DNA of 9,084 bases, taken from positions 1 through 9,084 of the forward strand of contig JBBITJ010000028.1 of the NCBI GenBank assembly GCA_037440825.1, read 5' to 3'. The position numbers were made by a program. The stretch comes from Candidatus Micrarchaeota archaeon. GTDB lineage: Archaea; Micrarchaeota; Micrarchaeia; Anstonellales; Bilamarchaeaceae. Positions 6,001 through 9,000 of the stretch are shown one piece after another; the stretch's first letter is position 1; each line of letters opens with the position of its first letter.

Positions 6001-9000
6001 TCGCATCGTAGTCGTAAGCCATGCTTATACATTTGTATAGCAATAATTTAAAAATCTATACAAAAATCCTGAAAAAACTGGAAAACTTATATATACTTAT
6101 GAAACGTCCTATTACCTGGCAATAGCCGAGGTGGGAGCATGAAGGAAATTGAAGCGAAGCGGGAGGCGAACAGGATCATGGCAGAGTTCGACTCCACCAT
6201 AAGGAACTACGGCACCACTTCGGTACGTTTTGCNNNNNNNNNNNNNNNNNNNNNNNNNNNNNNNNNNNNNNNNNNNNNNNNNNNNNNNNNNNNNNNNNNN
6301 NNNNNNNNNNNNNNNNNNNNNNNNNNNNNNNNNCATTTTTTAAAGTTTTCCCATCTATATGTAATTACGCCTGATTCTCGATTTGCCTGTATTCCGTTTG
6401 GGGTGTGGGGAAATCAAGGAAAAACCGCTAGGGGGCTCTGCCCCCTAAGAGGTTTGTCTGCAGGGATGGCGGAGCCCGGTCAATCGCGCCAGACTCAAGG
6501 TTTCGTTCCGGAACGCAAAACGCAGAACCCGGAACACATAAGCAATCTGGTGTCCTAGCGGCTACGAAGGTTCAAACACATATCCCTTTTCTTTTTGCGA
6601 AAAGAAAAGGTCTAAGTGGTTCGCCCCAAAAAGAAAAACGAACTGCTGGTATGGTGGAAATCCTTCTCCCTGCATTTTTATTCTTGCTTCAATTACGACT
6701 CAATCGTTTGCCGATGCGTCGCTAATTCAAAGAGGCGTTGTCCCGCACTCAGGGTGTAGGAGGGCACCTGAAGCTTTCTTACAATATTCTAATTACTTAT
6801 GTGTTGTTTTTAAATGTGTCTATCCGTGTAATAATCACGGACCAGCCGCAAATTGCTTTTTTATACCTTCTCCAAGAAACAAAATCCATGACCGAGTCTG
6901 CGGAAATCTGGAACGACGCTGCAAAGTCATTGGAGTTCCAGCAGAACTATTCAGGCTCCGCCTCGTGCTACGAGCGCGCGATCAGGTTCGGGGACGACAA
7001 TCCGCGCACGCTGGTCAACCTCGCGGTCTCAAACCTCCACCTCTACGAATTCTACAAGGACGACAAGTATCTCGCCTCTGCCAAAGGATACCTCGTATCT
7101 GCATTGGAGAAGGAGCCTGACAACCCGAGGATACACCATTACCTCGGGTTGGTCTACGTTTCCCTGGGCGAGAAGGAGCTGGCAGCGGACGAGTTCTTCA
7201 GCGAGGGCGAGAAGCAGGTCGAGGAGAGCAGCGAGCTACTCTTCCGCTTCAACCTCAACATAGAGACCCTGGTGTACGAGAGCAGGAAGCAGGACGTCTA
7301 CGAGCTTTTCCCCGATCCTGCCTTGTACAAGGTGTTCGACCTAGTGAAGAGCTTCCCCTTCGACAGCGCGCTGTTCGAGAGCCTCAAGGAGACTTACGGC
7401 AACCGCGACAGCTCCTCCCTCCTCGCGCTCTACCTCCGCTCGATATATTTCAAGGTCTTCGACGACCGCAAATTCTCGCAGGAGCTCGGGCTGAAGGACG
7501 AGCAGTCCAAATGGGAAGCCCTGCTGGTGTTCTTCGTCAGGGGCATAACTGCGGAATCCAAGGCGCTGGTGAAATCAGCGCTTCTTCCCGGCGGCTCGCT
7601 GGACGTTTCGAAACTGCCTGCGTACACGAAGCTGCTGGTGGGCAGGTACAGGAGAGAAATTCTCTCTTCCACATACTCTCGCCAGAGCTTCGAGGCCCTA
7701 ATCGACCTGCCCATGAGGAAGCTGGAAGCCCTGGACAAGGCGTGCGAGATTTCCTCCGATCCCAAAGGAGGGGTGCGGCAGCTCGTGAAGGCGATGAAAA
7801 CGCTTGCAAAGGTAGGGCTGGCGCGCATGAAGGGAGGGGAGCTTTCCCTTTCCCCCCAGCTCGTTTCAGGGCAGGAAGGCGCAGAGCGCGTCCAGTCTGA
7901 CCTCGCCAAGGGCGAATGCGGCCGCCAGCTCTTCCTGGAGCTCAATTCCCTCTTGAGGAAGAAGAGGTTCGAGTACGCGCTCGACCTCGCGAAGAAGATC
8001 CGGGCGCTGTACGAGGAAGCCGAAGCGCTGTATTACACCAGGGAGATAATTTCTAAAATAGCGCTCAGCGAGGAGGAGAAGTTCGCCATCCTCTCGGAAG
8101 CCTGATTGGCAGTTTGGGCTTTTCGACCGCGCTTATCAGATCTGCTTCGCGCAGAGGTTCTCTATTATGGGGAAGTTTGCCGTGCAGTTTATCTTGTTCC
8201 CGCTCACCTGCACGAACCCGTTGGCGCTCACAGACATGGTTCCGTTGCCGGTGAGCCCAAGTATTTCGAGGAACATGTTCTGCTGCGCGAGCCCGCCGTA
8301 GCCCACGGTCCCGTAATCCACTATTGCCAGGGCGTCGTCAACGTACGTCCAGCTGAAGCTTCCGTCCACCATGGCTTCACAGTCCGCGACCGCGCCGGTG
8401 CTGTCGTAGCAGACCGCGGTGAAGTTGTATGTTCCGGGGAAATCGAGCACCAAGGGCCCATCTATAGAGCAGTTCTCGTGCGAGCACGGTATGACTTCGA
8501 CAGCGTAGTTGTTCACCGGGTTGGTGTCGTTGGCTCCAGAGGTGAGGTTGGTCATTATCCCTATGTATGCCGAGCCCATGCAGTCGTAGTCGTCCGTGGC
8601 GCGCACGTATGACTGCCCCATGAGCAGCGCGGGGACCGTATATGACTGCCACGGCGGATTCGTTTCCTGGCAGTTAACCAGGAGGTTGTCTGCGCAGTGC
8701 ACGATCGCTATGTCGAGTTTGGACTGCGCGAATATGTCCGTGGTGCCCACGTTCGTGACCGTCACGTTGGCGTATCCGGTCTCGTTCTGCGCCATGAACG
8801 TGTCGTTGGGGGTTATGGTGAGCCCGAGGTCCACTCCTTCGGTTATGGTCGTGAATATGTCGTCCGACGCGCTCGTGGTGTTAGTGCACGTCGGGTCTGT
8901 GGTGCTCACGTACACCGTGATGGTGACGTTCTGCGGCTGCGTGCCGCCGCTGTAATCGAGCGTGCCGTTGAATCCGTACGTCTGCCCGACCGTGAGCAGG

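Follow-up and report, generated by a model that had tools for sequence, protein, structure and literature searches.

A two-intron tRNA-Leu(CAA) gene in a Micrarchaeota-type archaeon and the dispersed hairpin repeat that opens its predicted T-loop intron

Contig C28 carries, at positions 6460-6673 of the forward strand, a genuine tRNA-Leu(CAA) gene whose sequence predicts two protein-spliced introns. We consider it quite probable that the transcript is a precursor from which both introns are removed by protein enzymes, and that the second of them, in the T-loop, begins with a dispersed repeat that is kept where it is harmless.

The window analyzed here is the entire contig C28 (9,084 nt). The host is a tiny Micrarchaeota-type archaeon, and its genome is 95.6% complete. 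The gene and its immediate surroundings comprise the following features.

6399-6459 (+): conserved upstream element of 61 nt, ending exactly at tRNA position +1; hairpin AGGGGGC-NNN-GCCCCCT
6460-6499 (+): exon 1, tRNA positions 1-37 (acceptor 5' strand, D arm, 5' half of the anticodon arm, CAA); hand parse, same as the G004 orthologue
6500-6544 (+): predicted intron 1, 45 nt, canonical position 37/38; bulge-helix-bulge (BHB) check
6545-6576 (+): exon 2, positions 38-59 (3' half of the anticodon stem, variable arm, T-stem 5' strand, TTCAAA); hand parse, same as G004
6577-6660 (+): predicted intron 2, 84 nt, T-loop position 59/60; strict hBHBh'
6577-6641 (+): element copy within intron 2, 5' CACATATCCC; 92.4% identity over 66 nt to the copy on C9
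~6584-6610 (+): hairpin 1 of this copy (T4CT5 / A4GA4); family alignment and run-length analysis
~6616-6627 (+): small hairpin 2 of this copy; family alignment and run-length analysis
6624-6638 (+): third A-tract of this copy, CCCC-A5GA5; family alignment and run-length analysis
6661-6673 (+): exon 3, positions 60-72 (T60, T-stem 3' strand, acceptor 3' strand); hand parse
6674 (+): discriminator A, followed by T5 at 6675-6679

Parsed by hand, the gene has an acceptor stem GCAGGGA/TCCCTGC, a D stem GCG/CGC, an anticodon stem CCAGA/TCTGG enclosing a loop that reads CU-CAA-G, 45 nt, A, a long variable arm, and a T stem GAAGG/CCTTC with a T-loop that reads TTCAAA, 84 nt, T. The exons add up to 85 nt (40+32+13), and removal of both inserts leaves a canonical cloverleaf by parse and MFE, with T-loop TTCAAAT and anticodon loop CUCAAGA. 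The genome-wide survey's note had given the same extent (C28:6460-6673, 214 nt), which is correct, and its two introns of 45 nt at 37/38 and 84 nt in the T-loop held under the hand parse and the BHB check. Other anticodon readings were tried by hand and rejected, a shifted loop intron giving AGC or a broken U33. It is the sole gene of that anticodon found in the genome. The upstream 61-nt element has five copies in the genome at 87-100% identity (blastn), adjoining Leu(CAA), Leu(TAA), Ser(GCT), and two ORF starts.

ARAGORN reported nothing at this site in the whole genome, with or without its intron option, and in the window it called only tRNA-Ala. Rfam models run on the window at E<=1 left Leu(CAA) and the element unmatched, with sole matches on the tRNA-Ala gene, and the 36 RF00005 matches in the genome (34 above the cut-off) do not include the Leu(CAA) site. 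Searches of both window and genome thus bear out the earlier observation that the gene escapes both tools. The survey counted six such genes; that standard tools miss tRNA genes here is correct, but the number is not: we count eight that are found neither by ARAGORN at default settings nor by Rfam at its gathering threshold. A gene that had been left unassigned (C1:83269-83362) parses as Cys(GCA); it has U73 and, at 37/38, an intron of 24 nt (C1:83268-83362). Merging the tRNA lists leaves some 38-40 candidates, among them a duplicated contig end and a contig of low GC. Two genome-wide acceptor/T-arm scans gave noisy sets of 389 and 284 candidates and were used only to pick C5:24676-24905, tRNA-Ile(UAU), the second tRNA of this genome with a 59/60 intron (115 nt). 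Since default tools overlook at least eight tRNA genes in this genome, gene loss should not be concluded from the lack of isoacceptors in DPANN bins.

Both junctions of Leu(CAA) show BHB geometry. At 59/60 the T stem provides the outer helix h (5/5 pairs), TTCA/TGGA the central helix H (4/4), AA^C and AA^T the bulges, and h' has 6/7 pairs. The 37/38 intron has h with 5/5 pairs, H (CTCA/TAAG) with 3/4 and a C34.A mismatch, 3-nt bulges and a weak h'. Five introns of this genome were tested, and all have 3-nt bulges, with 4-5 of 5 pairs in h and 3-4 of 4 in H. AAA stands at both ends of the T-loop intron, so sequence alone fixes its border only to within 3 nt; its placement in the T-loop stood, and could be refined to 59/60, where the BHB is strict. 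In isolation the 84-nt intron folds at -23.4 kcal/mol (z -2.94). Inspection by eye for a guide RNA in the intron (C/D-box, H/ACA) found CUGA to be frequent and box C was not seen.

These features suggest how the tRNA might mature. A precursor of 214 nt would be transcribed from 6460-6673 and form a BHB motif at each intron-exon junction, the T stem acting as the outer helix at the T-loop site. There U54-A57 would pair with UGGA near the 3' end of the intron to give a central 4-bp helix, A58-A59/C and AA/U60 would form the two 3-nt bulges, and the intron ends, CACAUAU and AUAUGGUG, would pair as the inner helix. An epsilon2-type EndA would then cut both bulges of both introns, and RtcB would join the exons into an 85-nt class II tRNA. 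Both enzymes are encoded in the genome: RtcB matches PF01139 (E 4.8e-146), and the 392-aa EndA reported by the survey does align over its full length with 4FZ2 (E 2.8e-145), the structure of the ARMAN-2 epsilon2 splicing endonuclease. The 159-aa EndA paralogue (C6:36213-36692) was likewise described accurately as having its catalytic His replaced by Arg, in that DRTQY aligns with PHSEY of Archaeoglobus fulgidus EndA; it retains the Tyr and the Lys.

The C.A mismatch in the central helix of the 37/38 intron counts against the two-intron splicing account. The T-loop intron also holds T4CT5, in which the T5 run equals the gene's own T5 trailer in length. Oligo-T tracts terminate transcription in archaea, and T4CT5 inside the intron might halt the polymerase early.

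Thirteen Leu(CAA) orthologues were examined, of which 12 could be parsed; six have an insert at 59/60 (54-205 nt) and six do not. Within the genus the division is three with and two without, and the T-arm exons are identical. The 84-nt insert is missing from the orthologues of G004 and G007, both of the same genus. By our own reading of the alignment the exons match the G004 orthologue at 85/85 positions, its T-loop is intact (TTCAAAT) and its 37/38 intron is different. In a single study, metagenome contigs from three runs pass from 6573 directly to 6658, so that exactly 84 nt are left out at the level of DNA, and G004-like metagenome contigs have 77 other letters at the 37/38 site. A search for RNA runs covering 6380-6800 listed none. 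In G005 the Leu(CAA) gene has a homologous 37/38 intron with a perfect H, TGAG. Could the gene instead be a pseudogene broken by insertion of a repeat, with UUG read by tRNA-Leu(UAA)? Leu(UAA) is present on C18, and Leu(CAA) is called by neither ARAGORN nor Rfam. The exons are nevertheless unchanged relative to intron-free orthologues and the insert has a strict hBHBh'; similar inserts occur in seemingly single-copy tRNAs (Ile(UAU) here) and in nine genes of G003, and, in the portion of the ARMAN-2 study drawn on here, this enzyme family cuts 59/60 introns (PMC3239211). A broken gene is therefore highly improbable.

The first base of the T-loop intron is also the first base of a two-hairpin element of ~62 nt. 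As the survey proposed, the element recurs in the 37/38 intron of Arg(CCT) (C9:11469-11532, 92.4% over 66 nt) and at an intergenic site on C6 (C6:1002-1053, 85% over 53 nt; 89% over 57 nt when compared with the C9 copy). Additional copies were found in the window (2270-2317) and at C17:10117-10149 and C2:37268-37284. The second window copy lies among the following features.

1697-2251 (+): HTH+CBS gene; Pfam match
2262-2318 (+): second, more diverged element copy, intergenic; 86% identity over 51 nt to the C9 copy
2269-2290 (+): hairpin 1 of this copy
2422-2496 (-): tRNA-Ala gene, convergent to the element copy; ARAGORN, Rfam

Related genomes reveal a larger repeat family, spread over this genus and the taxonomic family to which it belongs. 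A strict 5'-end pattern, AYAYCCCYTTYYYTTT, matches 87 times, the matches coming from 15 of the 41 related genomes, and a reversed control gives 5. These genomes are not independent, and the counts overstate the number of events. Directly preceding 32 of the 87 is a T-loop-like GTTCRR, and about two thirds lack a preceding T-loop-like sequence. Members of the genus carry anywhere from 0 to 38 strict matches each. In one congener, G003, at least nine tRNA genes have a 59/60 intron that begins with the element: nine of 12 GTTCAAA junctions belong to complete genes (Leu x3, Asp, Lys, Arg, Glu, Ile, Gly), covering seven amino-acid identities. Several of these introns end ...CCCCAAAAAGAAAA followed by T, so that the A-tract of the element is itself the 3' half of the central helix, and tandem modular introns reach 421 nt. 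Across the genus the element opens introns at two tRNA positions and in at least eight amino-acid identities, the same family occupying 59/60 in Leu and 37/38 in Arg. It also occupies 37/38 in the Leu(CAA) gene of G027. In tRNA genes its orientation is always sense.

Some of this distribution would follow without mobility, from an ancient T-loop intron of the Leu family that was inherited vertically and repeatedly lost, the likeness between introns reflecting shared constraint. The 59/60 element intron is found in Leu genes with anticodons CAA, TAG, GAG, TAA, and CAG, which have a common T-arm sequence. The Arg intron copy is kept in G000, G001, G004, G005, G007, and G027; it is conserved throughout the genus and also in a single genome from another family, which fits vertical descent of this old Arg(CCT/TCT) copy. 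Yet the introns of two unrelated tRNAs, at different positions, are 92% identical over 66 nt, compared with 72-86% between orthologous Arg genes, and copies of the element reside outside tRNA genes. It is carried, moreover, by the G003 59/60 introns of Asp, Lys, Arg, Glu, Ile, and Gly, and intron content differs at the same orthologous site, Ile(UAU) 59/60 having an unrelated 115-nt intron in G000 and the element in G003 and G005. A history of loss alone is thus quite unlikely.

The copies outside tRNA genes raise a different possibility, that the element serves the host primarily as a terminator or 3'-end module, ending transcription in both directions by means of a T-rich palindrome, and that its intron copies are secondary captures. 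All three intergenic copies of this genome considered lie just 3' of an ORF in the same orientation. Hairpin 1 of the window copy begins 18 nt past the stop codon of the Pfam-supported HTH+CBS gene, the C2 copy is 1 nt past a stop codon, and the C6 copy lies between convergent ORFs. Many of the intergenic copies inspected in relatives are a few bases from the 3' end of a long ORF (1-7 nt from the element boundary at L101, L103, L106, L108, L112, and L113), one adjoins a tRNA 3' end, and T-tracts are present on both strands. These ORFs are mechanical, however, and the inspected sites number only ~27 at 23 places; in three cases the nearby ORF end faces the opposite end of the element. The sense orientation in tRNA genes is one in which a terminator would harm, and a range of 0 to 38 strict matches among congeners is hard to square with a host module. 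We regard a primary role in termination as possible but somewhat doubtful.

The survey had suggested a mobile intron element. Mobility is favored by presence and absence with identical exons, by two tRNA positions and by copy numbers of 0-38, but the element also lives outside introns. A dispersed hairpin repeat that survives in introns fits better, because many copies lie outside T-loops and near ORF 3' ends. Such a repeat would persist at harmless places, namely BHB-competent tRNA positions and short spacers at gene 3' ends. Position 59/60 of any tRNA, together with 37/38, would be where it is spliced out; at 59/60 this would hold for every tRNA, since UUCA of the universal T-loop would pair with the A-rich GAA(A) tail.

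We infer that copies most likely arise at the level of DNA. A link with Y1_Tnp was considered, as it is present in G003 and G020, which have the most pattern matches, and was rejected across the 41 genomes: of the 15 with the element 3 have Y1_Tnp, as do 9 of the 26 without pattern matches; it was not found in G000, and it has 14 matches in G034, which has no element. RVT_1 was not found in G000, G001, G003, or G007, and a search for a viral vector with a single degenerate core pattern returned 0 matches in viral_contigs. Copies outside tRNA genes show no consistent target duplication or target sequence, and their 5' flanks vary. The T-loop insert does have AAA on either side, which the BHB needs as well, and the Arg copy shows no duplication.

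MAFFT misaligns the T and A runs of the element, and run-length analysis was used instead. The third A-tract (CCCC-A^e-G-A^f) is in mirror register, with e==a in 18/21 asymmetric copies and e==b in 2/21, and its Watson-Crick pairing with the 5' arm was rejected on that ground. On a tentative and rather unlikely reading, the element would be a portable intron cassette with the fold of an intramolecular triple helix, and its A-tract would also serve as a 3' splice-site donor, since GAA pairs with the universal T-loop UUC. The third A-tract would keep the register of the hairpin 1 purine arm, rather than that of the Watson-Crick partner of the pyrimidine arm, in a pyrimidine-loop-purine-linker-purine geometry whose turn is small hairpin 2; in the antisense strand, this arrangement would give the classical U.A-U / C+.G-C type. 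If so, GAA/UUC pairing would permit splicing from any tRNA at 59/60.

What is new here is the two niches of the element family and the co-varying mirror A-tract. How do these compare with known systems? Bacterial REP, BIME, and MITE repeats are short, structured, and non-coding, vary strongly in copy number between close relatives, and are concentrated in gene 3'-end spacers, all of which is true of this element. On the other side, no terminal inverted repeats with target duplication were seen for it, and 12 of the 15 element-bearing genomes have no cognate Y1 transposase. To our knowledge no REP counterpart resides inside spliced tRNA introns.

ARMAN-2 (Candidatus Micrarchaeum acidiphilum) has multi-intron tRNAs, 59/60 introns and an epsilon2 EndA, according to the parts of the original report used here (Fujishima et al., 2011; PMC3239211). 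Its 59/60 cases there are Cys(GCA) and Pro(GGG), the latter with 53/54 plus 59/60, and in vitro its enzyme has been shown to cut an intron at 59/60 (PMC3239211). As far as those parts go, the present genome resembles it in having several introns per tRNA, T-loop introns at 59/60, a tRNA-Ile(UAU), genes missed by default tools, and a three-unit EndA that aligns over its full length. In contrast, the 59/60 example given for ARMAN-2 is a 13-nt intron with a relaxed hBH, whereas the intron here is 84 nt, strict hBHBh' and repeat-built, and the same parts describe neither a shared intron element nor a small His-to-Arg paralogue (PMC3239211).

The published case of intron copying between tRNA genes is that of the Thermoproteales, known to us through partial and secondary sources, in which intron families are described (2010, Mol Biol Evol; via PMC4090602, PMC3239211, 10.64898/2026.10.13.758758). 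For Asgard archaea, the portion of a 2026 preprint consulted reports that no such copying was found (10.64898/2026.10.13.758758). To the extent that these sources describe them, the Thermoproteales families share with the present one closely similar introns in different tRNAs of one genome (here Leu(CAA) and Arg(CCT), 92.4%), restriction to sites able to form a BHB, different tRNA positions, and gain or loss between close relatives. The present family differs in belonging to another phylum with an epsilon2 rather than an alpha2-beta2 enzyme, in occurring also outside tRNA genes, at gene 3' ends, in its tandem modular introns of up to 421 nt (G003), and in its architecture of two hairpins plus a mirror A-tract. 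The genus is a second, independent system for how archaeal tRNA genes gain introns. It offers exact presence/absence alleles with identical exons, a ~62-nt unit that starts at the intron's first base, a UUCA-GAA(A) pairing that would explain the T-loop as a favored home, and copies of that unit beyond tRNA genes, a combination that opens the origin of an intron from a genomic repeat to direct test.

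The window is the entire contig C28 (9,084 nt) of an 875-kb genome (45 contigs, rated 95.6% complete). It carries, at 6460-6673 on the forward strand, a class II tRNA that was parsed by hand as tRNA-Leu(CAA):

Features of tRNA-Leu(CAA), all on the forward strand
6460-6499, 6545-6576 and 6661-6673: exons, 85 nt in total
Acceptor stem: GCAGGGA/TCCCTGC
D stem: GCG/CGC, 3 bp, with a loop of 13 nt
Anticodon stem: CCAGA/TCTGG
Anticodon loop: C-U-CAA-G, 45 nt (intron 1), A
Variable arm: 15 nt
T stem: GAAGG/CCTTC
T-loop: TTCAAA, 84 nt (intron 2), T
6674: discriminator A
6675-6679: T5

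This parse bears out the genome-wide survey's note, which had placed a Leu(CAA) gene with 45-nt and 84-nt introns here. Standard searches all miss the gene. On the window, ARAGORN reports tRNA-Ala as its sole match, and its genome run leaves the site blank whether or not introns are allowed; the gene is also missed by an all-Rfam scan of the window at E<=1 and by RF00005 on the genome (36 matches, 34 above cut-off). A run of 100 N at 6234-6333 lies 126 nt upstream of the gene, and sequence beyond it is unreadable. The sense strand of the T-loop intron contains T4CT5 (6587-6596), whose T5 run equals in length the T5 that follows the gene (6675-6679).

In the archaeal bulge-helix-bulge (BHB) rule, two 3-nt bulges lie around a 4-bp central helix and cleavage occurs after the second bulge base. 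Every junction tested was scored against this rule, which matches the 3-4-3 hBHBh' description in the available text of PMC3239211. The T-loop insert fits solely as a 59/60 intron, and there strictly: the T stem forms the outer helix (5/5), U54-A57 pair with UGGA as the central helix (4/4), the bulges are AA^C and AA^U, and the inner helix is ACAUAUC/GGUAUGG (6/7). For the 37/38 intron the outer helix is complete (5/5) and the central helix CUCA/UAAG pairs at 3/4 positions, with a C34.A mismatch; in the orthologue of one relative (G005), UGAG restores a perfect central helix. The 37/38 intron of tRNA-Arg(CCT) fits too, as do both introns of tRNA-Ile(UAU), and since one of the latter lies at 59/60, T-loop introns number at least two in this genome rather than one.

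Comparison with relatives amounts, at the level of sequence, to proof of the intron borders. A search of 41 related genomes gave matches in 33, and among the 12 of 13 Leu(CAA) orthologues that could be parsed (all but G027) a 59/60 insert of 54-205 nt is present in six and absent in six. In G004 the exons are those of the window and the GAAGGTTCAAATCCTTC arm is intact, with a different and longer 37/38 intron; G007 has no T-loop insert and a 37/38 intron of 16 nt; G005 has three introns, in the D-loop, at 37/38 (a homologue of the window's) and in the T-loop. Independent evidence comes from three mine-drainage metagenome runs of a single study, whose contigs pass directly from 6573 to 6658, so that 84 nt are missing (within a 3-nt ambiguity), and have 77 other letters in place of 6501-6538. 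Because their downstream sequence matches that of G004, these contigs indicate a G004-like organism rather than a variant of the window's strain.

Intron 2 begins with CACATATCCC. Hairpin 1 (CCC-T4CT5 / A4GA4-GG) comes next, then a short spacer that contains hairpin 2 (3-4 bp), and then CCCC-A5GA5. This element is also found elsewhere in the genome:

Further copies of the element, with percent identity
C9:11469-11532: 92.4% over 66 nt to the Leu(CAA) copy, in the 92-nt 37/38 intron of tRNA-Arg(CCT), from intron base 1 as in Leu
C6:1002-1058: 85% to the Leu(CAA) copy and 89% to the C9 copy, between convergent ORFs
Window 2262-2318: 86% to the C9 copy, hairpin 1 starting 18 nt past the stop of an HTH+CBS gene; faces tRNA-Ala
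C17:10117-10149: partial match
C2:37268-37284: partial match, 1 nt past a stop codon

The sharing of an element between the Leu(CAA) and Arg(CCT) introns and the C6 intergenic site, as first described in the survey, thus holds. Beyond the common 66 nt the tails of the two intron copies diverge, each fitted to its host tRNA: UGGAAA pairs with the T-loop in Leu, and GGAGAG with CUCC of the anticodon loop in Arg.

The strict 5'-end pattern AYAYCCCYTTYYYTTT has 87 matches in 15 of the 41 genomes (38 in G003, 10 in G020, 7 each in G001, G002 and G007, 3 in the genome under study and none in G006); the reversed control has 5. GTTCRR directly precedes 32 of the 87, including 22 of those in G003: 12 follow GTTCAAA and 10 follow GTTCGG[AT], with which a different repeat module ends. 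Of the 12 junctions with GTTCAAA, nine give complete tRNA genes, by anticodon loops read by eye Leu(TAG, GAG, TAA), Asp(GTC), Lys(TTT), Arg(TCG), Glu(TTC), Ile(TAT) and Gly(GCC); two of the three left over are at contig ends. The 59/60 introns of these genes are long (156-421 nt), consist of the element chained with tandem modules and end in ...CCCCAAAAAGAAAA|T or ...GGTTGAAAA|T, from which it follows that a GAA(A) tail pairs with the T-loop UUC(A). At L006, L021, L022, L024, L035 and L130-L134, the G003 loci with such introns, the element is combined with two other modules: one is CAGATGTTGATAATA...GGTCTGTATCAACCCCAAAAAGAAAA, arranged in tandem, the other GGGGGAGGGTCAGGA...CCCCTCCGCGGTTCGG. 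A short ATG-initiated frame is present in some of the introns. Another locus, L038 (G011:C1:169264-169929), contains three tandem 117-nt units, in each of which the element is represented by its second half alone (GGTCTAAGTGGTCACCCCAAAACAAAAAG).

Element-bearing introns also occur in G001, G002, G005 and G020. The Arg(CCT/TCT) intron copy is common to the genome under study, G001, G004, G005, G007 and G027, and the Arg gene of G031 is intron-free. The 59/60 site of Ile(UAU) holds an unrelated 115-nt intron in the genome under study and the element in G003 and G005. Intron content at a fixed tRNA site turns over.

Run lengths were compared in 37 distinct copies with the notation CCC-T^a-C-T^b for the 5' arm, A^c-G-A^d-GG for the 3' arm and CCCC-A^e-G-A^f for the third tract. 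The hairpin register (d = a) is kept in 36 of the 37, and e = a holds in 33; of the 21 asymmetric copies, in which a and b differ, 18 have e = a and 2 have e = b. When third tracts were shuffled among copies the observed value was reached 0 times in 10,000, a figure that is not a probability since the copies are related. The Arg intron of G004 has a variant with two interruptions (T5CT3CT3 / A3GA3GA5 / A5GA3GA4), which, read by eye, obeys the same rule. This co-variation makes the third tract a mirror of the purine arm. Its register is wrong for Watson-Crick pairs to form with the pyrimidine arm; it is right for a candidate fold-back purine-motif triplex, and on the antisense strand the triplex would be of the pyrimidine-motif type. 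Several third-tract copies per hairpin are found in G003 introns, a surplus that a simple triplex does not need.

Outside tRNA genes, about 27 element sites at 23 places were examined with 0.7-kb flanks and mechanically called ORFs. A long ORF ends 1-7 nt from the element boundary at six loci (L101, L103, L106, L108, L112 and L113); at two sites in the genome under study the distances are 12 nt and 1 nt. One copy lies directly 3' of a tRNA. These gene-end copies can be read as having a terminator-like role, or as a repeat that survives in the sole harmless spacers of a compact genome. The survey's reading of a mobile intron element is supported, but the copies outside tRNA genes support a dispersed repeat, introns being among the things it builds. 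The survey's observation is confirmed and sharpened.

Two further tRNA genes and a second repeated sequence were characterized:

Other tRNA genes and copies of a 61-nt upstream element
C5:24676-24905, forward strand: tRNA-Ile(UAU), introns of 41 nt at 37/38 and 115 nt at 59/60
C1:83268-83362, reverse strand: tRNA-Cys(GCA), 24-nt intron at 37/38, discriminator U73
Window 6399-6459: upstream element
C13:12116-12176, reverse strand: upstream element
C5:31292-31343: upstream element
C3:51277-51334: upstream element
C18:15691-15745, reverse strand: upstream element

Default ARAGORN misses the Ile gene, which scores 18.9 bits with Rfam; its T-loop intron, unrelated to the element, has a GGGGGCAAGCCCCC hairpin, and similar hairpins are seen in the upstream element as well as in other introns. 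The C1 gene is tRNA-like as the survey held, but not unassigned, since it can be read as Cys(GCA), with which ARAGORN agrees when introns are allowed. The upstream element consists of GGGGAAATCAAGGAAAAACC, a hairpin AGGGGGC-NNN-GCCCCCT and AAGAGGTTTGTCT. It stops exactly at +1 of three class II tRNAs (Leu CAA, Leu TAA and Ser GCT), one copy stops exactly at an ATG and another lies just upstream of an ORF; copies of 82-97% identity are present in G004, G032, G039 and, at least six times, G031. It may be a promoter or leader cassette, or another repeat. C43 may be foreign because its GC is low (35%, where the other contigs have about 55%) and it carries a Gly(TCC) tRNA of its own. The tRNA gene at C1:82989-83107 has a duplicate at C39:175-293, and identical scan candidates, shared by C1 with C41 and by C1 with C40, point to duplicated contig ends.

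The epsilon2-type EndA announced in the survey is present on C1 (392 aa, of which residues 3-392 align to 4FZ2, E 2.8e-145). The 159-aa paralogue (C6:36213-36692, reverse strand) aligns to the catalytic repeat of Archaeoglobus fulgidus EndA (1R0V, E 1.4e-14), where DRTQY stands opposite PHSEY, so the catalytic His is indeed replaced by Arg; the Tyr and Lys positions are retained. These three positions are named as the catalytic triad in the accessible parts of PMC3239211 and PMC12397907. As the paralogue is conserved in 31 of 41 related genomes (24 of 24 in family f1) and all 5 genus orthologues examined have its motif YRKGFRPGEDRT unchanged, it looks functional rather than decaying. The genome also encodes RtcB. 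Two profile pieces (positions 1-50 and 46-426) lie about 1.46 kb apart at C12:21585-24377 on the forward strand, both inside one 983-aa open frame, and the gap looks like an intein-type insertion.

Our literature search returned no paper on a tRNA-intron element, shared or mobile, in Micrarchaeota or DPANN; the supplements of PMC3239211, which may list ARMAN-2 introns, were outside this search. In its available text, that paper describes many disrupted tRNAs in ARMAN-2, with 59/60 introns in Cys(GCA) and Pro(GGG), as well as a tRNA-Ile(UAU), and shows that in vitro the epsilon2 enzyme cuts a 59/60 intron. Intron families common to several tRNA types are described for Thermoproteales, and none for Asgard, in the accessible portions of PMC4090602 and bioRxiv 10.64898/2026.10.13.758758. 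This kind of system is already known; new in the present variant are its dual niche, its fit to the T-loop, its modular growth and its mirror tract.
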